Shown: in pieces, positions 4,954-55,671 of the stretch
How positions within the stretch are numbered: the first letter of the stretch is position 1
Layout: every line of letters starts with the position of its first letter
Assembly (NCBI GenBank): GCA_045802645.1
Contig: JBJMQQ010000131.1
Span: 2,050 to 66,049 of the forward strand
DNA: 64,000 nucleotides
DNA from: Polyangia bacterium
GTDB lineage: Bacteria > Myxococcota_A > Polyangia > Fen-1088
Reading direction: 5' to 3'
Made by a program: the position numbers and the translations under genes
The notes under the pieces: model-generated
What the model saw: the letters and a program-made list of their open reading frames with translations, nothing else
The model's database searches: none
What the model was told of the DNA's origin: nothing

Positions 4954-6057
4954 TCACTGCGTCGTCACGGGCGGCGGCGGGCAAATGATGGCGTCGCTGG
5001 CGCCGGCCGCGACGATGCCGCCCGTTCCCCCGATGCACCGCGAGATGCAGGTGAACGTGGTCGTGTTGCACAGGTACCCCGTCGGGCAGACGCAGGAGAC
5101 CTTCTGGTCGCAGTTGTTGACGACGGAGGTGCCGCAAGACACACCCGCCGCCGCGCAGGCGTCGGCGTCACTCTGATTGCAGACGCAGGCCCCGGTCGAA
5201 TCGCAGACCTCGTTCGGGTTGGTGCATTTGCAGCCGCCGGAGCCGCCCGAGCCGTTGAGGCCGCCCGTGCCCTGGATGCCGCCGGTCCCGTTGAGGCCGC
5301 CGGTACCCAGGACACCGCCCGAGCCGAGCACGCCGCCCGTGCCGACGGTGCCGCCCGTTCCCTTGACGCCGCCGGTCCCGATCGTCCCGCCCGTCGACGC
5401 CACGCCGCCGGTGCCCAGGGTGCCGCCGGTCCCGACCACGCCGCCGGTGCCGTTGAGACCGCCTGTCCCGACGGTGCCGCCGCCGTGTCCGCCCGCCGGC
5501 ATGCCGCCCGAGCCCAGCGTGCCGCCCTGCCCGACGCCGCCGGTCCCCAGGCTGCCGCCGCGTCCGCCGGTGGCGTTGCTGCCGCCCGCGCCTTGCGTGC
5601 CGCCGCTGCCCCGCGTACCACCGGTGCCAGGGCTGCCGCCGTCGCCGGTCGTGCCGCCGTCCACGATCGGGACGCACGGCTGGAGAGGCTGAATGATCAG
5701 CGTGAGCCCTTGCACCGTGTTACCGGGGCTGACGTTGCTCACGGCCAACGAACCGATACCGACCTTGCAGTTCTGCGCGGGATCGTCGACCTCGGCGGTC
5801 AACGTGACCATCCCCGAAATGTCGGACGGCAGGTACACGCCCGCGCGGTACGCCTTCGCGCTGTCGAAGTGGATCTTGTCGAACCGCGTCTGCTGTTGAA
5901 GGCCGGCGCGCACCAGCAGGGTTACGTCCGTGAACGCGATGCTGCCGTTCGCCGACTTCACGTCCATGACGACCAGCGAGCGCTCGCCGCACGAAACGAT
6001 GACGAACGCGGCCACCGCCGCAAGAACACAAAGATTGGTGAAGCGCTTCAGTGACAT
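4954..6057 (-). CDS. lipoprotein with N-terminal beta-rich domain, long GTGGxx repeat region and Cys-rich C-terminal domain
   Basis: Internal ATG at 6057 gives MSLKRFTNLCVLAAVAAFVIVSCG (lipobox). About 140 aa of Gly-rich hexamer repeats are followed by about 16 Cys (GGCKCTNPNEVCDSTGACVCNQ...). Confidence 0.65.
   Translation of the reverse strand: MSLKRFTNLCVLAAVAAFVIVSCGERSLVVMDVKSANGSIAFTDVTLLVRAGLQQQTRFDKIHFDSAKAYRAGVYLPSDISGMVTLTAEVDDPAQNCKVGIGSLAVSNVSPGNTVQGLTLIIQPLQPCVPIVDGGTTGDGGSPGTGGTRGSGGTQGAGGSNATGGRGGSLGTGGVGQGGTLGSGGMPAGGHGGGTVGTGGLNGTGGVVGTGGTLGTGGVASTGGTIGTGGVKGTGGTVGTGGVLGSGGVLGTGGLNGTGGIQGTGGLNGSGGSGGCKCTNPNEVCDSTGACVCNQSDADACAAAGVSCGTSVVNNCDQKVSCVCPTGYLCNTTTFTCISRCIGGTGGIVAAGASDAIICPPPPVTTQ
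5226..5665 (-). repeat. coding tandem repeat (18-nt unit, GTGGxx hexapeptides)
   Basis: The plus strand shows reiterated ccgccggtgcc/ccgcccgtgcc units. The translation is GTGGLNGTGGVVGTGGTLGTGGVASTGGTIGTGGVK... Confidence 0.85.
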
Positions 6058-6716
6058 GTCGCCATCTCCGGGCACGCGGGATCGTGCGGGGACGCCACGA
6101 TCGCGATGACGATGCCGGTCGCCACCGCGGCGCCGACGGCCGTCCAGAACCACCACTTATAGTAGAACGGCTTGGCCTCATCGGAGGCGGGGGGGCTGCT
6201 GTTTTCGACAAGTGGCGTCGGGGCGGATGTGGGATTTGTCGCCTCCAGCCCCACCGGGGTCGTGGCGCCAACGCCCGTGGCGGGCGGCGGCGACGGAGGC
6301 GGCGCGGCCCGCGGTAACGGCGTGACGGGCGGTGGCGGGGCGGCCGGCGGCTCGGAGGTGGTGGACTTCGACGCTTCGTCCAGGTCACGGATGTGCTTTT
6401 CCGCGATGGCGCGGCTGGGCGCGCTTGGCGCCGCATCGTTCAGAAAGCGACGGTAGAACTTGATCGCCTCGGCCGCGTGCCCCATCAGGCGGTGGCACTG
6501 GGCGATGTTGAACAGGAAGCTCGCGTCCGGCTTGGACAGGTAAGCCTGCTCGTATTCGCCGATCGCGTTCGGGTACTTCTCGAGCTTGTAGTACGCGTCG
6601 GCTTGTCGCGAGTGTTCGCGGGCGGCCTCCGTGCGCGCATCGGCCGCGCCCGCCGGCGCGCTGGTGGCCGCGAGGACCGCCAGGACGACGACACTCACGA
6701 CGAATGGTCTTTGCAC
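6048..6716 (-). CDS. secreted TPR-like protein with Pro-rich linker and C-terminal TM anchor
   Basis: Signal peptide MQRPFVVSVVVLAVLAATSAPAGAA. TPR-like YYKLEKYPNAIGEYEQAY...AQCHRLMGHAAEAIKFYRRFL. A PPPP linker is followed by the WWFWTAVGAAVATGIVIAIV helix. Its stop overlaps the next gene's start by 10 nt. Confidence 0.65.
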   Translation of the reverse strand: MQRPFVVSVVVLAVLAATSAPAGAADARTEAAREHSRQADAYYKLEKYPNAIGEYEQAYLSKPDASFLFNIAQCHRLMGHAAEAIKFYRRFLNDAAPSAPSRAIAEKHIRDLDEASKSTTSEPPAAPPPPVTPLPRAAPPPSPPPATGVGATTPVGLEATNPTSAPTPLVENSSPPASDEAKPFYYKWWFWTAVGAAVATGIVIAIVASPHDPACPEMATCH

Positions 6717-48373: not shown

Positions 48374-49432
48374 ATGCGCCTAGCCGGGTACGTCGCGGCC
48401 GAGTTGACCATCGCCGCGACTTTGCTCGCGGGCGGGGTGACAGGTGCGGCGTTCGGCATCCGGCACCTCCGACATGTCCTGGCGCCCCACGCGATCACCC
48501 CGGCCGGCCCGCTGGCGGCTCGCGACGACCTGTCGGAGCTGGGCGACCTGCGCGTCTCGCTGGAGTCGTCCGGGACCTTTCTCGGCATGTCGGACGAGCT
48601 GCTGCTGGAACGCGTCCGCACCCAGCCCATCAAGCGGTTCAAGCTGAATCACGGCGGTTCGTCGATCTCCTTCCGCATCGACTTCGCCGACGGGTCGCGG
48701 GCCGCCTGGAAGCCGCAGCAGACGAACAGCCAGACCGTCCCCCGCAAAGAGGTCGCCGCGTATCGCCTGAACCGGCTGCTGGGCCTCAACGCGGTGCCGC
48801 CGGCGGCGGCCCGGGCGGTCTCGCGTGAGGAGCTGTTCACACACCTGCACCCCGACAGCGTGGAGTTCGTCCCGCGCATCCAGGACGAGGTGATCTTCGG
48901 CCCCGACGGCAAGACGCTGGGGACCGCGTCCTACTGGATCCCGGTCATCAAGGACTGCGGGTTCGACAAGGGTGAAGGGCGACAGCAGATGCAGGCCTGG
49001 CTCACCCACGGCGAGACCATCCCGCCGGACCAGCTGTCGATGGCCCGGCAGGTTTCGGACCTGGTGGTGTTCGACTTCCTGACGTCGAATCCCGACCGCT
49101 ACTCGGGCGGCAACATGAAGATGTCGCCGGACGGCAGCGAGCTCTTCTACATGGACAACACCATGTCGTTCTTCCTGGACCCGCAGGGCAAAGAGAAGAT
49201 TCGCGACGTGCTTTTCCGGACCCAGCGCTTCTCGCGGTCCCTGGTCGACGCGCTGAACCGCATCACCGAGGCCACACTGCGTCGGGCGTTCGGGACCGAA
49301 GCCGGCGCCGGCCACGAGATTCTGACCCCGGCCGAGATTACGGCCGTCATTGCGCGCCGCGACGTCATCAAACGCCACATCGATGACCTGATTGCGAAGT
49401 ACGGCGCCCGGGACGTCCTGCTTTTTCCCTGA
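48374..49432 (+). CDS. membrane-anchored Fam20/FJX1-like secretory-pathway-type kinase homologue
   Basis: N-terminal anchor AAELTIAATLLAGGVTGAAFGI. WKPQQ...PRKEVAAYRLNRLLGLNAVPPAAARAV and VVFDFLTSNPDRYSGGN...LFYMDNT parallel the recalled Fam20C strings (FKPMRQ...[36 protein letters not shown]...HLDN). Confidence 0.6.
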   Translation: MRLAGYVAAELTIAATLLAGGVTGAAFGIRHLRHVLAPHAITPAGPLAARDDLSELGDLRVSLESSGTFLGMSDELLLERVRTQPIKRFKLNHGGSSISFRIDFADGSRAAWKPQQTNSQTVPRKEVAAYRLNRLLGLNAVPPAAARAVSREELFTHLHPDSVEFVPRIQDEVIFGPDGKTLGTASYWIPVIKDCGFDKGEGRQQMQAWLTHGETIPPDQLSMARQVSDLVVFDFLTSNPDRYSGGNMKMSPDGSELFYMDNTMSFFLDPQGKEKIRDVLFRTQRFSRSLVDALNRITEATLRRAFGTEAGAGHEILTPAEITAVIARRDVIKRHIDDLIAKYGARDVLLFP

Positions 49433-49494: not shown

Positions 49495-50823
49495 ATGAAC
49501 GTCCATTTCGTCTCCCTCGGCTGCCCCAAGAACCGCGTCGACACCGAGGTCATGCTCGGCCACACGGAGGAGGCGGGCCACCAGCTGGTCGCCGAGCCCG
49601 AGGCCGCCGAGGTCATCGTCATCAACACCTGTGGCTTCATCGGTGAGGCCAAACAGGAATCGATCGACGCGATCTTGGAGATGGCGCGCCACAAGCAGGC
49701 TGGCACGTGCAAGCGGCTGGTCGTGGCCGGCTGCCTGTCCCAGCGTTACCCCAAAGAGCTGGCCGCCGAGATGCCCGAGGTCGACCAGTTCCTGGGGACC
49801 GACGAGGTCGGCGCGATCACCAAGGCCATCACGGGCACGCTGGAGCGGCTGGCGGTCACGGACACGCCCGCCTACCTGTACGACGATGCCTCTCCGCGCC
49901 GCCGCTCGCAGGCGCCGCACACGGCTTACGTGAAAATCGCCGAGGGGTGCGATCGCCCCTGCGCGTTCTGCATCATCCCCAAGCTGCGCGGCCCGCAGCG
50001 CAGCCGGGCGCCCGAATCGGTGCTGCGCGAGGCGCGCGAGCTGGTGGCGGGCGGCACGCGCGAGATCTGCCTGGTCGCGCAGGACCTGACCACCTACGGA
50101 ACGGACCTTCCGGACGCGCCGCCGTTGGCCGAGCTGCTGCGGCAGCTGGCGGCGGTCGAGGACCTGGGGTGGATCCGGCTGCACTACGCCTACCCGTCCG
50201 CCTGCACGGACGCGCTGCTGGACGTCATCGGCGCGGAGCCGCGCGTGGCCAGCTACCTCGACGTCCCGATTCAGCACGTTGACACCGGCGTGTTGAAGGC
50301 GATGCGACGCGGTTACGGCGAGCGCCAGGTGCGCGATCTCGTCGCGCGGTTCCGCCAGCGTGTCCCGGGCGGGACGTTCCGCACGACGTTCATCGCCGGG
50401 CACCCCGGCGAGACCGACGAAGCGTTTCAGCGTCTGTGCGACTTCGTGCGCGAGGCGGAGCTGGATCACGTCGGCATTTTCAACTTCTCCCGCGAGGAGG
50501 GGACCGTCGCGGCGCTGCTGCCCAACCGAGTGCCGCAAAAAGAGATCGACGCGCGCCGCCGCGAGCTGCTGCGAATCCAGCGCGAGATCTCCAAGAAGCG
50601 GCTGCGCGCGATGCGCGGTCAAACGCTGCGCGTACTGGTCGAAGGACCTTCGGATGAGTCCGAATACCTGTTGATGGGCCGCCACGAAGGGCAGGCGCCC
50701 GAGATCGACGGCCAGGTCTACCTGTCGCTGGGCGCGGACGGCACGACGCCCGCGGCCGGCAGCTTCGTAGAGGCGTGCGTCACGCATTCGGCCGAGTACG
50801 ACCTGGCCGCAGAGATTCGTTAG
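49495..50823 (+). CDS. rimO: ribosomal protein S12 methylthiotransferase
   Basis: MNVHFVSLGCPKNRVDTE, radical-SAM CDRPCAFCIIP, and a C-terminal TRAM domain. Confidence 0.9.
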   Translation: MNVHFVSLGCPKNRVDTEVMLGHTEEAGHQLVAEPEAAEVIVINTCGFIGEAKQESIDAILEMARHKQAGTCKRLVVAGCLSQRYPKELAAEMPEVDQFLGTDEVGAITKAITGTLERLAVTDTPAYLYDDASPRRRSQAPHTAYVKIAEGCDRPCAFCIIPKLRGPQRSRAPESVLREARELVAGGTREICLVAQDLTTYGTDLPDAPPLAELLRQLAAVEDLGWIRLHYAYPSACTDALLDVIGAEPRVASYLDVPIQHVDTGVLKAMRRGYGERQVRDLVARFRQRVPGGTFRTTFIAGHPGETDEAFQRLCDFVREAELDHVGIFNFSREEGTVAALLPNRVPQKEIDARRRELLRIQREISKKRLRAMRGQTLRVLVEGPSDESEYLLMGRHEGQAPEIDGQVYLSLGADGTTPAAGSFVEACVTHSAEYDLAAEIR

Positions 50824-50949: not shown

Positions 50950-51297
50950 TTGCAGGCAATCGTGCGCACCGAAGCAACACCCAGCACGAGCGGCAATCGG
51001 CGACGGCATCCGCGCGTCCAGCTCGGATTGCCGGTCGAGGTTCACGTCGATGAGGTCGCCGAGACGCTCACGGTCGAGCTGATCGACATCGGGGCCGGTG
51101 GGGTGCGCCTGCGGCCCCTCGAGTCCAGCGGCATCACGGTCGATCGGCGCGCCACGTTCGGGTTCATCGTTCCGGGCGGCGGCAAGTGCGTGGCCGGCGG
51201 GCGGGTGGCCCGTGTGCAGCCGGGCGGCGAGTTCGTCGTCGTTCTGGACCGCGCCAACCCCGCCTTCCGCGAGTTCCTGCGGTCGCTCTCGGTCTGA
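50950..51297 (+). CDS. PilZ domain protein
   Basis: RRRHPRV...LIDIGAGGVRL fits the RxxxR ... D/NxSxxG c-di-GMP-binding pattern (Ser replaced by Gly). 115 aa. Confidence 0.65.
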   Translation: MQAIVRTEATPSTSGNRRRHPRVQLGLPVEVHVDEVAETLTVELIDIGAGGVRLRPLESSGITVDRRATFGFIVPGGGKCVAGGRVARVQPGGEFVVVLDRANPAFREFLRSLSV

Positions 51298-51362
51298 TTC
51301 CCCGGATTTCAGCCAGGGCTGGCCTAATCGCACGCCCCCGGTGACACTTCCGCGCGTGCCCG

Positions 51363-51905
51363 GTGTTGAGGGTACATGCGGGAGGCGACACCCGAGTGGC
51401 CCTGGACGTCGAAGGACTCTATCTACGGTACGGACCGGCGGTGCTCCGTCGCTGCCGGTCGATCTTGCGAGATCCCGGCGCCGCCGAGGACGTGGCCCAG
51501 GAGGTGTTCGTGAGCGCGCTGCGGTTCGAGGCACGCCTGCGGGACGAGGCGCCGGGCGCGCTGCTGCTGCGCATCGCCACGAACCTGTCGCTGAACCGGT
51601 TGCGCGGCGAGCGCCGCCGGCCGGAGGACGCGGACCCGGACGTCGCGCTGCGAATCGCCCGCGCGGGCGACGACGGCGCCTCGGCCGAGAGTCGGGCCGT
51701 CGCGCGCAACCTTCTGGCGCGGCTGTTCCGCCCGGACGATCCGCTGGCGGCGTCCACGCAGACGCTGGCGTTCATGCACCTGGTCGACGGGATGACGCTG
51801 GACGAGGTCGCGCGGGAGGCGCGGCTGTCCGTCTCGGGCGTCCGCAAACGGTTGCGCACGCTGCGCGGCCGGCTGGCCGAATTGCAGGAGGACGGGTCGC
51901 GATGA
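51363..51905 (+). CDS. ECF sigma factor
   Basis: Region 2 EDVAQEVFVSAL...LLLRIATNLSLNRLR. Region 4 LAFMHLVDGMTLDEVAREARLSVSGVRKRL. Confidence 0.85.
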   Translation: MLRVHAGGDTRVALDVEGLYLRYGPAVLRRCRSILRDPGAAEDVAQEVFVSALRFEARLRDEAPGALLLRIATNLSLNRLRGERRRPEDADPDVALRIARAGDDGASAESRAVARNLLARLFRPDDPLAASTQTLAFMHLVDGMTLDEVAREARLSVSGVRKRLRTLRGRLAELQEDGSR

Positions 51906-52732
51906 CAAACCCGAATGACGAATCACGCTGGATGCTCGAGCGGCTGGCGCTGGGCGAGCTGGACGCCGCCACGGCGGCTGATCTGCGCCGGCGGCTCACC
52001 GCGGCGGGGGTCGACGTGGACGAGGCGCTGGCCCGGCTGGCGGCTTCGAACGCCGAGCTACTGGCGGCGCACCCACCCGCGCGAGTGGTGGCGGGGATTC
52101 GAAATCGTGCGGCGACCGCCGCGAGAGTCGCGACGGCGCGGCCGCGGCGTGCACCCTGGCTGGCGGTGCCGGTCGCTCTGGCCGGGGCGATGGCGCTGGC
52201 GCTGTGGGCGCGTCCCGGGCTGCGCGGGCCCGCCCCCGTCACGGGCGACGGGCTGGAGCCGACCACGTTGAAGGGTTCGCCCGCCGCGGCCACGCGCCTC
52301 TTGGTTTACCGCCACGAATCGGGCGGCGATCACGCGTTGCCGGACGGCGCCCGCGCAGCCGAAGGAGACCTGGTCCAGCTCGCGTACCGCGAGCGCCACG
52401 GCGGATTCGGCCTGTTGCTGTCGATCGACGGCGCGGGCGCGGTCACGCTGCACTGGCCCGAGCAGAGCGGCGACAGCGCGGCGCGGCTCGAGACGGCCGC
52501 CGAGGCGCGGCTCCCCTCCGCGTACCAGCTGGACGGCGCGCCGGGCTTCGAACGCTTCTTTCTGGTGACGGCGCCGCGCCCGTTCGCGCTCGGTCCGGTC
52601 GTCGCGGCGGCGCGCGCGCTGGCCGCCCGCCCCGGCGACGCCCGCGTGGCCCCGTTGCCGCTCCCGCCGTCGTACGAACAGACCTCGATCGCGCTCGACA
52701 AGCCGGGCGCGGGCCGAAAGGAACTCCGATGA
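51902..52732 (+). CDS. anti-sigma factor with periplasmic DUF4384-like domain
   Basis: The ATG at 51902 overlaps the sigma stop (ATGA). TM helix WLAVPVALAGAMALALW. The C-terminal LLVYRHESGG...GDLVQLAYRERHGGFGLLLSIDGAGAVTLHWP has a beta-sandwich-like pattern. Confidence 0.6.
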   Translation: MTNPNDESRWMLERLALGELDAATAADLRRRLTAAGVDVDEALARLAASNAELLAAHPPARVVAGIRNRAATAARVATARPRRAPWLAVPVALAGAMALALWARPGLRGPAPVTGDGLEPTTLKGSPAAATRLLVYRHESGGDHALPDGARAAEGDLVQLAYRERHGGFGLLLSIDGAGAVTLHWPEQSGDSAARLETAAEARLPSAYQLDGAPGFERFFLVTAPRPFALGPVVAAARALAARPGDARVAPLPLPPSYEQTSIALDKPGAGRKELR

Positions 52733-54990
52733 AGCGCCTCCTGACCTCGTTCGTCCTCGCGGCGACCGTCGCGATGGGCGCGACGCCGCGGCTCGCGGCG
52801 GCCGCGGCCGCTTCCGCCCGGCTGCACCGGTACGCGCTGTTGATCGGCGTCGCGGACGGCGGCCCCACCCGCCCGCGCCTGCGCTACGCAGCCAGCGACG
52901 CCCAGGCGATGGGCCGCGTGCTGCAGACACTGGGCGGCGTGGCGGCCCCCGACGTCGTCTTCGTCGCGGACGGCACGCGCGCCGCGATCGACGCCGGCTT
53001 CGCGCAGATCGACGGCCGGCTCCGCGCCGATGCGACAGCGGGCGTGCGCCGCGAGCTGCTGGTCTACTACTCGGGCCACTCCGACGAGGAGGGGCTGCTG
53101 GTGGGCCGCGACCGCTATCCGTACGACGAGCTGCGGACGCGCGTGCAACGGGCGCCCGCCGACCTGCGGGTCGTCATCCTGGACTCGTGCGCGTCGGGGG
53201 CGTTCACGCGTCACAAGGGCGGCGTCAAGCGCCCGCCGTTCCTGATGGACAGCTCGATCGACATGCGCGGGCATGCGTTCTTGACCTCGACGTCCGCTGA
53301 CGAGCAGGCGCAGGAGTCGGACCGGATCGCGGCGTCGTATTTCACGTATTACCTGCTGTCCGGGCTGCGCGGGGCGGCGGACGCCAACCAGGACCGGCGC
53401 GTCACGCTGCAGGAGGCGTATCAGTTCGCGTCGCAGGAGACCCTGGCCCGCACCGAACGCACGCAGGGCGGCCCGCAGCACGCCGCCTACGAATTCGATC
53501 TGACGGGCACCGGCGACATGGTCGTCACAGACGTGCGCGGGACGGAGTCGGGGCTGGTCCTGCCACCCGAGCTGAGCGGCCGTATCACCGTGCGACAGCG
53601 CGACGGCGCGCTGATCGCCGAGCTGCACAAGGCCGCAGGCAGCACGCTGGAGCTGGGCGTGGAGCCTGGCGACTATGTCGTCGCGATGGAGGGCGCGCCG
53701 CAGATCTTTCAAGCGGAGATCGCGCTGGTCGCGGGGCAGCGCACCGCGGTGCGCGCGTCGGCCTTCCACGCCGGCGCAGCACGCGAGCTGACCGTCGCGC
53801 GGGGCGACGTCGCGCCGGCCCCCCCGGCCGTGTCCGCGACCGCGAGCGCTCCATCGGCGCCACCGGCCGAGACGGTTCCCGTCAAGGCCGTGCTGTTTCC
53901 CGGTCGCAGCGACGGCAACACCGACGTCGACGGGTTCTCGTTCGGGTTCATCGCGGACCGCGCGCGCCGGGTGCACGGGTTGCAGCTCACGCTGGGATAC
54001 GCCCAGGTCGACGAGCAACTACGGGGCGTTCAGCTCTCGGTCGGCGTCAACGCCGTTGGAGGCGACATGCATGGCGGCGAAATCACCGTCGGCGCGAACG
54101 TGGTGACGGGCAACGTGAACGGCGCCCAGATCGCAGCCGGCGCGAACATCGCGACAGGCGACGCGCGCGGCGCGCAGATCGCGGCTGGAGCCAACGTCGC
54201 GGGCGGTGAGCTGCGGGGCACCCAGATCGCCGCGGGCCTCAACCTGGCGAACGAAGCGCGGGGTGTGCAGATCGCGGCCGGCGCCAACTACGCGACGCGG
54301 CTGGACGGCGCACAGCTGGCGCCGCTCAACATCGCGCGATCCGGCAGCGGAACGCAGATCGGCGTCGCCAACGTCGTCGGCGAGGAGACCGGGGTTCGGA
54401 TCGGCGTCCTCAACTTCGCGGCGCGCAATCATGGTTTCCAGTTTGGCGTCGTCAATGTCGCCGCGCACGACGACGGTGAGTCGCTGGCGCTGCTCAACCT
54501 CATCGGCGACGGCATCCACGAGGCGTCCATCTACGCGACCGATCTGATGCTCACCAACTTCGGTATCAAGCTGGGCGGCCGTCACCTGTACACGCACTTC
54601 ATGATTGGCTACCAACCGGGTGACGACCTCGCGGCGGGCCCCGAGCACTTCACGCGCTCCAGCCGGCGCTGGGGGTTCGGCGCGGGTCTCGGCTGGCGCT
54701 TCCCCGTCGAGTGGGGCCGTCTCCGGTACGTGGAGGTCGAGGCAGACAGCCTGCAGCTCCGGACCACCAGCAATTTGTCCGGCAACTCTCCGCAGGTGGC
54801 ATCCCTGCGCGCGCAGGTCGGGTTGCGGCTGTACCACGACTTGAGCGTGCTGGTCGGCGCCGGGGCGGGCGTTGCGATCGGCACCGACGGCCAGGACGCC
54901 GACGTCGGCTTCGGTCCGCAGAGCGTCAGCCACAGCGGCGCGACGACCGTGCGGGTGTACCCCTCGCTGCTGCTGGGCCTGCAGATCTGA
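52729..54990 (+). CDS. exported caspase-family (peptidase C14, orthocaspase) protein with repeat region and beta-barrel-like C-terminus
   Basis: The ATG at 52729 overlaps the anti-sigma stop (ATGA). Signal peptide MKRLLTSFVLAATVAMGATPRLAAA. Catalytic dyad context LLVYYSGHSDEEG and VVILDSCASGAF. Confidence 0.75.
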   Translation: MKRLLTSFVLAATVAMGATPRLAAAAAASARLHRYALLIGVADGGPTRPRLRYAASDAQAMGRVLQTLGGVAAPDVVFVADGTRAAIDAGFAQIDGRLRADATAGVRRELLVYYSGHSDEEGLLVGRDRYPYDELRTRVQRAPADLRVVILDSCASGAFTRHKGGVKRPPFLMDSSIDMRGHAFLTSTSADEQAQESDRIAASYFTYYLLSGLRGAADANQDRRVTLQEAYQFASQETLARTERTQGGPQHAAYEFDLTGTGDMVVTDVRGTESGLVLPPELSGRITVRQRDGALIAELHKAAGSTLELGVEPGDYVVAMEGAPQIFQAEIALVAGQRTAVRASAFHAGAARELTVARGDVAPAPPAVSATASAPSAPPAETVPVKAVLFPGRSDGNTDVDGFSFGFIADRARRVHGLQLTLGYAQVDEQLRGVQLSVGVNAVGGDMHGGEITVGANVVTGNVNGAQIAAGANIATGDARGAQIAAGANVAGGELRGTQIAAGLNLANEARGVQIAAGANYATRLDGAQLAPLNIARSGSGTQIGVANVVGEETGVRIGVLNFAARNHGFQFGVVNVAAHDDGESLALLNLIGDGIHEASIYATDLMLTNFGIKLGGRHLYTHFMIGYQPGDDLAAGPEHFTRSSRRWGFGAGLGWRFPVEWGRLRYVEVEADSLQLRTTSNLSGNSPQVASLRAQVGLRLYHDLSVLVGAGAGVAIGTDGQDADVGFGPQSVSHSGATTVRVYPSLLLGLQI
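53971..54515 (+). repeat. about 11 tandem 14-16-aa repeats (GxQ[IL]AAGxN[IV]Axxxxx) inside the caspase-family gene
   Basis: GVQLSVGVNAVGGDMH GGEITVGANVVTGNVN GAQIAAGANIATGDAR GAQIAAGANVAGGELR GTQIAAGLNLANEAR GVQIAAGANYATRLD ... Confidence 0.8.
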
Positions 54991-54999
54991 GCGTGGATG

Positions 55000-55671
55000 T
55001 CAGTCGCGCGCGGACTCGTACTGCTCGCGCAGCGCGATGCCGTCCGGCAGGTTCATCGCGGTCACCGTCGCCAGGTAGTCGCTGAACCGGTATTGCACGC
55101 GGGCGCTGTGCAGCGGGCCGCCCGCCAGCGCGAGGGCGGTGGCCTCGCCGGCCAGCGCGCCACCGCCAAGCTGGGCGGATAGCTCATGTCGGAGGCTCTC
55201 GAACAGTCCGGCGGCGCTGCCTCCGGATAAATGTCCGCGCAGCGTCGACACGGAGACGAGGCGCCCATCGGGCGCAAAGCCGAACGTCACCTCGTCGTAC
55301 GTCGGGATCTGCCGGCAGGTCAGCAGCGCCGACGGACGGGCGCGCGCCGCGCAGATCGCGCCTCGCCCGGCGGCCCACCGCTGTACGTCCGCCACCCGCG
55401 CGGCGTCGAGCTGCAGCCCCAGCGCCGGTCGCGCGGGCGCGGCGGTCGGACCGCGCAGGTCGCGCACGCCGCGCATCCGCAGCGCCTCGGCCGCCTGCGG
55501 CGTGACGGCACGGGCGGGACACGTCACGCCCAGGTGCCGCATGAACGGCCGCCCGGCGGACGTGTGCAGGAACCCCATCGCGGCGACGAAGACCGCCGTC
55601 GCGCCGCCGCTCCAGGCCAGCGCGCGCACCAGGGGCCGCCGGCGTCGCCGGATGAGTCGCGACCGCATCAT
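55000..55671 (-). CDS. hypothetical single-pass membrane protein
   Basis: The ATGATG at 55671 overlaps the upstream stop (ATGA). Arg-rich N-terminus, then LAWSGGATAVFVAAMGFL. No recognisable domain. Confidence 0.5.
   Translation of the reverse strand: MMRSRLIRRRRRPLVRALAWSGGATAVFVAAMGFLHTSAGRPFMRHLGVTCPARAVTPQAAEALRMRGVRDLRGPTAAPARPALGLQLDAARVADVQRWAAGRGAICAARARPSALLTCRQIPTYDEVTFGFAPDGRLVSVSTLRGHLSGGSAAGLFESLRHELSAQLGGGALAGEATALALAGGPLHSARVQYRFSDYLATVTAMNLPDGIALREQYESARD

Follow-up and report, generated by a model that had tools for sequence, protein, structure and literature searches.

An ECF sigma factor, an anti-sigma factor and an exported metacaspase-like protease encoded as a conserved gene triad in Myxococcota

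Operons that join a gene for a sigma-70-family factor to a metacaspase gene were catalogued in 2012 by Asplund-Samuelsson et al. for M. xanthus, Anaeromyxobacter, Haliangium, Sorangium, Ralstonia and Fibrobacter, and four of the five metacaspases of M. xanthus DK1622 are encoded in operons with a sigma factor (PMC3501461). The locus described here, from a Polyangia-type metagenome-assembled genome of a soil myxobacterium (85% complete, 290 contigs, 5.9 Mb), shows the same gene association: in the window (the whole stretch of 64,000 nucleotides that was analysed, on contig JBJMQQ010000131.1) a sigma factor of the extracytoplasmic function (ECF) type, a single-pass anti-sigma factor and an exported metacaspase-like protease are encoded one after the other. 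As the 2012 catalogue already holds it, the gene association is not new, but nothing beyond listing was done there; the entry comes without anti-sigma factor, DUF4384, outer-membrane anchor, promoter, regulon, cleavage motif or experiment, and the window copy adds a solenoid stalk. An earlier interpretation of the same DNA letters (the sequence-only reading) had called the arrangement an undescribed circuit, which is partly true in that it figures as a catalogue entry only, while the operons themselves (PMC3501461) and the control of sigma factors by caspase-family proteins, as in DdvA and craspase, are known. New here are the promoter with its candidate regulon, the revised start of the ECF gene, the exclusion of the neighbouring PilZ gene and a quantified motif common to two of the proteins.

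A characterised analogue is known from M. xanthus, where the anti-sigma factor DdvA possesses a periplasmic CHAT domain and self-cleavage of its juxtamembrane linker before the action of RseP has been proposed (PMC11506125, PMC6061681). DdvS/DdvA likewise combines an ECF sigma factor with a single-pass anti-sigma factor and a periplasmic His-Cys protease of the caspase fold, but in DdvA a TPR-CHAT region is fused to the anti-sigma factor and the regulon comprises cyclic oligonucleotide-based anti-phage signalling (CBASS) and clustered regularly interspaced short palindromic repeat (CRISPR) systems, whereas in the window the protease role falls to a Peptidase_C14 protein encoded on its own, with a predicted barrel, and that of the sensor to a DUF4384-like immunoglobulin (Ig)-type domain; the 276-residue anti-sigma factor of the window holds this Ig-like domain only and no fused TPR-CHAT. 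In the type III-E craspase, Csx29 (TPR-CHAT) cuts the sigma-binding protein Csx30 and frees the ECF sigma factor CASP-sigma (RpoE), with some C-terminal domains of Csx30 being DUF4384. A caspase-family protease cutting a sigma-binding protein is also what is proposed here; craspase differs in being cytoplasmic, RNA-guided and CRISPR-linked, in having neither membrane nor barrel component, and in its cleavage motif. The partnership of DUF4384 with caspases, which the sequence-only reading had brought up, is documented by fusions of the domain to caspases and orthocaspases (PMC7475262, PMC6426788).

ECF genes are also conserved beside CHAT/caspase genes in the ECF54 and EACC2-caspase neighbourhoods, associations seen in silico only and for which proteolytic control has been proposed (PMC8999054; PMC8195603); the ECF54 contexts lack an anti-sigma factor, and the EACC2-caspase contexts belong to conflict systems of the cytoplasm that have EACC2/TPR partners. 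The main text of the ECF classification paper mentions neither caspases nor DUF4384. Regulated intramembrane proteolysis of anti-sigma factors (RseA-DegS-RseP, RsiW-PrsW) and cell-surface signalling (FecI-FecR-FecA), taken together, offer parallels to the proposed periplasmic site-1 cut of a single-pass anti-sigma factor, to the gene order sigma factor, anti-sigma factor, predicted outer-membrane barrel, to the presumably autoregulatory ECF promoter and to the TonB-system candidates of the regulon; of these, gene order and TonB-system candidates alone recall FecI-FecR-FecA itself. Unlike in these systems, the candidate site-1 protease is an operon-encoded clan CD cysteine protease with a predicted outer-membrane tether, FecR, Plug and DegS domains are lacking, and the sigma factor, the anti-sigma factor and the caspase give no match to FecR, Plug or TonB_dep_Rec. 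Finally, the LA_2272 and VC2662 repeat proteins (NF047436, NF047437) display the same GxQxxxGxNxA repeat and barrel, here fused behind a caspase and scoring below both cut-offs. The system of the window lacks the defining features of DdvS/DdvA, craspase and the ECF54 and EACC2-caspase neighbourhoods, though it plausibly works like them.

Composition and inheritance of the triad

In a region of approximately 70% G+C, four genes follow each other on one strand, encoding a PilZ domain protein, the ECF sigma factor, a membrane protein of 276 residues and an exported Peptidase_C14 protein of 753 residues, of which the last three constitute the triad:

51396..51905, + strand: ECF (group 4) sigma factor, 169 residues
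51902..52732, + strand: single-pass anti-sigma factor, 276 residues, with four N-terminal helices, a transmembrane helix, a linker and a DUF4384-like Ig-type beta-sandwich
52729..54990, + strand: exported Peptidase_C14 metacaspase-like protein, 753 residues

The stop codon of the ECF gene and the start codon of the anti-sigma gene share the bases ATGA at 51902-51905, as do the stop codon of the anti-sigma gene and the start codon of the caspase gene at 52729-52732, exactly where the sequence-only reading had placed these overlaps, and the four co-directional genes that it saw are confirmed; sigma factor, anti-sigma factor and protease are thus translationally coupled. The gene 3' of the caspase gene is convergent, with its stop at 55000, and terminator-like hairpins were not predicted in the region, including between the PilZ and ECF genes.

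Proteins of the window were searched with Pfam and NCBIfam profiles and judged against the curated cut-offs. The sigma factor matches Sigma70_r2 (51 bits) and TIGR02937 (51.6 bits versus a cut-off of 42.9; match over residues 17-173), while region 4 is weak (16 bits versus 25.7); with sigma-2 and sigma-4 regions only, these profile matches place it in the ECF family. The upstream GTG at 51363 was rejected as its start, as this codon falls in the -10 element of a conserved promoter; since the promoter motif occupies 51340-51367, the start is assigned to GTG 51396, which is preceded by the ribosome-binding site GGGAGG at 51380-51385 and corresponds to the orthologous gene calls that begin with MALDVE.

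In the AlphaFold2 model of the anti-sigma factor (predicted local distance difference test (pLDDT) score 82), residues 88-102 form a transmembrane helix, the linker of residues 104-126 is disordered and residues 132-267 fold into an Ig-like sandwich. The HxxxCxxC motif of zf-HC2 is not present in the window protein, where RRRLTAAG stands in its place, and despite the lack of the zinc motif the N-terminus is still modelled as a four-helix bundle followed by the transmembrane helix. Five paralogues in the same genome have kept the motif, on contigs C51 (25.7 bits, above the cut-off), C122 (14.8 bits, below it), C169, C157 and C26 (the last three by eye), and hhalign connects the family of the window protein to the C122 paralogue with 97.4% probability. 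The ATGA overlap with a membrane protein gene, zf-HC2 in the paralogues of that protein and a conserved bipartite motif upstream mark the two genes as a putative co-transcribed and autoregulated sigma/anti-sigma pair.

The sensor domain had been likened to DUF4384 (PF14326). The window protein itself stays below the gathering score (14.9 bits versus 27, E = 0.029) and a Pfam search of the whole genome of origin gave no DUF4384 match at E <= 0.01, but 31 of 50 anti-sigma orthologues match (best 6.9e-6), and a precomputed PF14326 match is attached to two clusters. We therefore take the domain for a DUF4384-like Ig fold of divergent sequence and do not count it among the certified members of the family. 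A fold search with the sensor returned generic Ig-like sandwiches only (STT3/AglB domain, RhoGDI) and nothing specific. The name given by NCBI to homologues of the anti-sigma factor is 'ActD-like protein', which would suggest a link to M. xanthus ActD, but no NCBIfam model matches. MXAN_3215, which we take to be actC, is a GNAT acetyltransferase, so that ActD probably does not belong to an ECF triad.

Conservation was assessed on the level of the phylum, the locus and the genome. In a survey of 301 genomes of the phylum, 118 (39%) encode a caspase homologue at a threshold of E <= 1e-20. Among 40 loci from 40 genomes tallied by tblastn, 33 carry the genes on a single strand in the order ECF, anti-sigma, caspase, and another two are partial; two of the other five are permuted and read caspase, lipoprotein, ECF, anti-sigma. 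The genome of origin alone possesses eight cassettes, as identified by tblastn and gene calls, on contigs C119 (the window), C122, C169, C157, C68, C26, C51 and C114, the last of which is permuted (caspase, lipoprotein, ECF). The sequence-only reading had named a gene order not conserved elsewhere as a ground for refutation; for the three genes the order proves strongly conserved. A profile hidden Markov model (HMM) of the periplasmic-domain family retrieves from this genome only seven caspase-linked anti-sigma factors and one weak outlier on contig C234. Across paralogue groups that are only 25-40% identical and have different promoters, the caspase stays the third gene, a retention characteristic of a core component of signalling and not of a variable output. 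Across Myxococcota the members of the triad are co-inherited, one protease paralogue to each sigma/anti-sigma pair.

The seven other caspases of the genome have 500-590 residues and no solenoid, and a lipoprotein gene, the product of which is beta-propeller-like or Cys-rich, comes after most of their cassettes. The outlier at C234:4561-5070 (+ strand) is a membrane-anchored DUF4384-like protein of 169 residues without the anti-sigma N-terminus and without a caspase neighbour, in which K-R-G precedes the domain; it is encoded directly after genes for BMC-domain (microcompartment shell) proteins, with a PilZ gene 3 kb upstream, and may be of the 'ActD-like' type.

The protease and a motif common to it and the anti-sigma factor

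The exported protein matches Peptidase_C14 (PF00656) with 39.7 bits versus a cut-off of 21.4 and is composed of a signal peptide (approximately residues 1-29), the caspase domain (31-250), a beta-sandwich (274-340), an Ala/Pro linker (350-378), a predicted beta-solenoid and a predicted barrel. Short features of the two proteins that bear on proteolysis are the following, where the arrow marks the candidate scissile bond:

53077..53190, + strand: catalytic dyad His117 (53077-53079) and Cys154 (53188-53190) of the caspase
53206..53220, + strand: T160-R-H-K163-G164, candidate autoprocessing site of the caspase, 9 residues past the catalytic Cys
52262..52276, + strand: T121-T-L-K124-G125, candidate site-1 cleavage site in the juxtamembrane linker of the anti-sigma factor (family consensus [TVI]-R-x-K↓G)
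53380..53415, + strand: EF-hand-like loop D218-A-N220-Q-D222-R-R-V-T-L-Q-E229 of the caspase

The best Foldseek matches of the caspase are the metacaspase structures 7qp1/7qp0 and caspase-2. The dyad, which had been noticed as intact from the letters, is invariant in 51 orthologues and stands in register with Arabidopsis metacaspase-4 (PDB 6w8s), YYSGH117S and ILDSC154ASG aligning with HYSGHG and DSCHSG, respectively. Among 54 homologues, the Cys motif is present in 53 and all but three fit the scanning patterns for the dyad motifs. The mean pLDDT of the AlphaFold2 model is 78, with the second half of the fold (155-272) ill-defined. In the EF-hand-like loop, D218, N220, D222 and E229 are invariant in the 51 orthologues; a DxxxD[GR]xVTxxE loop occurs in most caspase homologues and the paralogue on C68 shows weak EF-hand matches in Pfam, so that the loop is a possible Ca2+ site.

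Caspases mature by self-cutting of the intersubunit linker just past the catalytic Cys, to which position Cys+9 corresponds. In the family analysed here, [KR]-G is found at Cys+9/+10 in 53 of 53 caspases, and K163-G164 of the window protein lies in a low-confidence loop (155-205). In the anti-sigma factors, the equivalent dipeptide stands at the end of a variable, disordered linker, 8-51 residues past the transmembrane helix (pLDDT <50 for the window segment), and ranks with the best conserved positions in an alignment of 47 periplasmic regions that covers every paralogue group, with K/R in 47 and G in 46. Both logos have T/V/I at P4, R at P3, K at P1 and G at P1'; R occupies P3 in 29 of the 47 anti-sigma factors and 44 of the 53 caspases, and T, V or I occupies P4 in 43 of the 53 caspases. 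Metacaspases and orthocaspases cleave after Arg or Lys (PMC3501461, PMC6426788), and the metacaspase-type DSC motif and the conserved K↓G motifs point indirectly to cleavage after Arg/Lys as a candidate activity of the caspase. The most economical interpretation would make [TVI]-R-x-K↓G the recognition site of this protease, present once on the protease itself and once on the anti-sigma factor.

The remainder of the protein is predicted to be all-beta (residues 380-753, pLDDT >90 in the AlphaFold2 model) and falls into two parts:

53926..54519, + strand: 13 tandem GxQ(I/L)xxGxNxA repeats of 14-16 residues, predicted parallel beta-solenoid stalk of the LA_2272 surface-repeat type
54520..54987, + strand: small predicted C-terminal outer-membrane beta-barrel of 8-10 strands (Foldseek), ending in YPSLLLGLQI

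The tandem repeats are real, but number 13 units of 14-16 residues (unit starts at residues 402-583, lag 16 dominant) instead of the approximately 11 units of 15 residues counted before. As the uninterrupted strand runs of 35-49 residues fit in-register parallel stacking and would not arise from a hairpin barrel, the repeats are assigned to a beta-solenoid; a fold search with it identified no solved relative. Scores for LA_2272_repeat (18 bits versus 25) and VC2662_fam (27.7 versus 140; 1.6e-6) are below the NCBIfam cut-offs, while homologues of the tail reach 60 bits for LA_2272_repeat. The last approximately 150 residues resemble the 8-stranded barrels OprF-N, NspA, Ail, OmpW, OmpX and OmpA (Foldseek probability up to 0.99, E = 0.06-0.08) and a C-terminal (W)PGxxxG(L/V)x(F/I/L) strand is common to the homologues, the last strand of the window protein, LLLGLQI, being conserved. 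The repeats of beta-solenoid-like periodicity and the beta-rich C-terminus that could insert in the outer membrane, as given by the sequence-only reading, correspond to a predicted beta-solenoid and a predicted OmpA/OmpX-like barrel, respectively. A type Va autotransporter was not recognized, with no PF03797 match, no linker helix between solenoid and barrel and a probability of 0.35-0.38 only for EspP.

The tail is a generic, putatively outer-membrane module, and the solenoid occurs in one paralogue group only; in other paralogues (approximately 500-590 residues) the sandwich is directly followed by a beta-rich C-terminus usually ending in Phe. An exhaustive search with residues 380-753 retrieved 5050 representative proteins, in which the tail stands either behind a caspase (700-850 residues) or alone (340-500 residues), the stand-alone forms passing the LA_2272 cut-off. 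The sequence-only reading had named as a ground for refutation that the tail be a known adhesin module with unrelated context, and the tail does occur alone in unrelated contexts. In one such case (L057, 758-3987 of a contig from Logan SRR15373728), the gene for a solenoid-barrel protein of 402 residues that stands alone lies directly 3' of the gene for a HemolysinCabind/PKD protein of 657 residues, which suggests that the module also partners secreted RTX-like proteins. Another tail homologue, P0329 (1056 residues), has two tandem caspase domains before the LA_2272 repeat and barrel.

Promoter, candidate regulon and competing readings

The gap between the PilZ and ECF genes harbours a conserved element:

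51340..51367, + strand: ECF-type promoter GGTGACAC-N13-CGGTGTT (GTGACA-N16-GTGTT, equivalent to GGTGACA-N15-GGTGTT)

GGTGACA(C/G)-N13-CGGTGTT with invariant spacing is found 5' of the ECF gene in at least 24 loci from different genomes, and the promoter upstream of the operon is presumably autoregulatory. Scanning of the 5.9-Mb assembly with a position weight matrix of the promoter identified the window site as the single strong one (38 bits) and one other of 22.6 bits. This second copy, GGTGACACCCGCGGCCGAGGTCGGTGTT, which holds the exact core, is located outside the window at C202:569-596 (- strand), approximately 45 nucleotides upstream of an exbB/tolQ-like gene, the product of which shares 39.5% identity with a MotA_ExbB protein confirmed by Pfam. 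A hairpin, CACTGAAAAAAACTTTCAGTG, precedes the C202 copy, and the exbB/tolQ-like gene runs past the contig end.

The 13-base promoter core has 113 exact matches in 54 of the 301 genomes versus 24 for a reversed control. For 60 additional sites the first downstream genes were read and assigned in silico. Three of the sites are further ECF promoters; of the other genes, approximately nine encode DUF2807 lipoproteins (two recognized with Pfam, five with BLAST and two by eye), three ExbB, three TonB_C proteins, two receptor-like proteins with CarboxypepD_reg and Plug, and three stand-alone LA_2272 solenoid-barrel proteins, besides small beta-rich envelope proteins. Genes for exbB and tonB carry the same motif in six genomes, in addition to exbB in this genome, and several regulon-candidate genes are located 0.2-6.5 kb from the cassette (G139, G028, G289, G060). 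The set of motif-bearing genes points to an outer-membrane-centred regulon. In three of these genomes (G139, G028, G289) the promoter motif recurs at a gene for a DUF2807 ('head GIN') lipoprotein, which is found 0.2-6.5 kb 3' of the cassette (L018:5355-5395 and 5548-6425; L067; L068). A divergent double cassette (L037, G210:C12:1463500-1470900) pairs an anti-sigma gene with a caspase gene on one strand; the opposite strand holds another caspase gene, a long one, with GGTGACA-N15-GGTGTT directly in front and without an ECF gene of its own.

To these observations we give a reading that stands, in our estimation, at an even chance of being correct: the periplasm-facing protease would process itself and cut the anti-sigma factor, so starting the release of the sigma factor, the whole being an autoregulated trans-envelope cassette. 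The C-terminal barrel would hold the protease in the outer membrane, its N-terminal part turned to the periplasm in the manner of BamA, LptD and FecA, and the caspase would face the periplasm on a beta-solenoid stalk of approximately 60 Å plus a flexible linker. OmpA/OmpX-type barrels have both termini in the periplasm, and the beta-signal-like last strand of the barrel was counted in favour of outer-membrane anchoring. An envelope cue, possibly together with Ca2+ at the EF-hand-like loop, would trigger self-processing after K163 (TRHK↓G), upon which the protease would cut the anti-sigma factor after K124 (TTLK↓G) in its disordered juxtamembrane linker. With the Ig domain lost, an RseP-type site-2 protease could free the sigma factor, which would transcribe its own operon in a positive feedback as well as the exbB-like operon in this genome and, in relatives, the genes for TonB, TonB-dependent-receptor-like proteins, DUF2807 lipoproteins and stand-alone solenoid-barrel proteins. 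Besides the barrel topology, the linkage of the three genes, the motif that both proteins carry, the DUF4384-caspase fusions as Rosetta-stone evidence with the Csx30 and DdvA precedents, and the promoter with its candidate regulon were counted in favour of this reading.

Several points weigh against this proposal. Every cleavage step is one that we infer, residues 155-272 of the caspase domain are modelled poorly, and the window anti-sigma factor has T and not R at P3. As the caspase-free protein on C234 also has K-R-G before its domain, K-G is possibly a structural feature of the domain boundary, and K-G at Cys+9, compared in 53 caspases of this family, could be a feature of the active-site loop. 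Some of the exact promoter matches are due to chance (24 in the control versus 113). The protease may instead sit on the outer face of the outer membrane, as NCBI speaks of a 'surface' repeat and the succession of protease, beta-helix and barrel resembles an autotransporter. Linker length correlates positively with caspase length in 47 cassettes (Spearman rho +0.44, p = 0.002). A 'molecular ruler', in which linker and caspase would compensate for each other's span, had been expected to give a negative correlation and finds no support; the positive correlation is probably a phylogenetic effect of shared ancestry within paralogue groups.

The alternative that survives best, which we deem possible and somewhat unlikely, sees the caspase as a regulated output, an outer-membrane or surface protease that the sigma factor would switch on along with TonB/ExbB, TonB-dependent-receptor-like and other outer-membrane proteins, while the anti-sigma factor senses another cue via its Ig domain; a possible role would be to break down external (prey) or envelope proteins and take up the products, in a sort of 'protein utilisation' regulon. 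The operon promoter would drive the caspase gene, in G210 (L037) the motif stands directly before a caspase gene, and the regulon candidates TonB, ExbB, the Plug/CarboxypepD_reg receptor and outer-membrane barrels are compatible with such an output, as are the surface-autotransporter-like layout and the NCBIfam term 'surface repeat'. However, a barrel of 8-10 strands without linker helix and without a Pfam autotransporter match makes the export of a passenger of 570 residues unlikely, and the occurrence of DUF4384-caspase fusions elsewhere is left unexplained. So are the caspase that each of at least eight sigma/anti-sigma pairs has of its own and the presence of [TVI]-R-x-K-G in both the anti-sigma linker and the caspase; because each divergent pair keeps its caspase and both proteins share the motif, an output-only role is disfavoured.

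Decidedly improbable, in our view, is that the caspase is non-proteolytic or self-processing only and that DUF4384 docks to it, as an inhibitor or pseudo-substrate or in a FecR-FecA-like manner, with a conformational and perhaps TonB-driven signal and with Prc, CtpA or DegS making the site-1 cut. The order of sigma factor, anti-sigma factor and barrel genes, which mirrors FecI-FecR-FecA, the promoter motif on exbB and tonB genes in six genomes plus exbB here, and an Ig-fold proteinase inhibitor among the fold matches of the anti-sigma factor (rank 43, very weak) speak for such docking, while the retention of the dyad and its flanking motifs in nearly all 54 homologues argues for catalysis and the window proteins show no FecR, Plug or TonB-box signature in Pfam and NCBIfam searches.

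Returning to proteolytic release by the operon-encoded caspase, an extended version, which we put forward as speculative and unlikely to hold in full, would have a Ca2+-binding outer-membrane metacaspase on a solenoid replace the TonB-dependent transducer, cut itself at TRxK↓G and then its private DUF4384 anti-sigma factor; the freed sigma factor would induce a dedicated TonB-ExbB pair, TonB-dependent-receptor-like proteins and DUF2807 proteins, and up to at least eight insulated caspase-gated channels would operate in parallel in myxobacteria. Bacterial caspase homologues are abundant and almost none has a known substrate, and the cassette provides a candidate pair with the K↓G bond in both partners. 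If the cut proves true, an outer-membrane-tethered site-1 protease of clan CD joins the short list of ECF release routes, craspase/Csx30 and DdvA gain a periplasmic counterpart that does not depend on CRISPR, and it would help to explain how many separate envelope-signalling channels could be operated in predatory, multicellular myxobacteria. What the output of the pathway may be is suggested by the promoter motif and its putative regulon, which comprises TonB/ExbB, receptor-like barrels and DUF2807 lipoproteins.

The PilZ neighbour

50950..51297, + strand: PilZ-domain gene (PF07238, 27.3 bits versus a cut-off of 22.5)

That this PilZ protein is a fourth component through which cyclic di-GMP feeds into the ECF/caspase module is very improbable indeed, for although its gene shares the strand of the ECF gene without a predicted terminator in between, a PilZ gene is found two genes away from the second cassette on contig C122, and two cassette neighbours among the 21 PilZ domains of the genome are mildly unexpected, a PilZ HMM is negative at 40 of 40 loci and the gene is missing from the Kofleriaceae loci L013 and L014, the conserved ECF promoter sits between the PilZ and ECF genes, and the second cyclic di-GMP-binding motif is degenerate.

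With respect to the protein itself, the RxxxR motif is present as RRHPR and the (D/N)xSxxG motif reads DIGAGG, with Gly in place of Ser; the start of the gene is likely GTG 50959, as in the orthologues. The distance to the ECF gene, given as 65 nucleotides under the assumption of GTG 51363, is 98 nucleotides with GTG 51396. The HMM used in the locus survey was made from the PilZ proteins of this genome, and the gene was rejected as a module member, and with it as part of the circuit that the sequence-only reading had suggested, as a lineage-specific neighbour retained only in the close orthologues L008-L010 and L012 (caspase identity at least 68%). As the upstream genes keep their order in the same close orthologues, the linkage is local synteny only: a RimO/MiaB-like gene (49495-50823) and a Fam20-like kinase gene (48374-49432) precede PilZ and the cassette in L008-L010 and L012 in the same arrangement as in the window.

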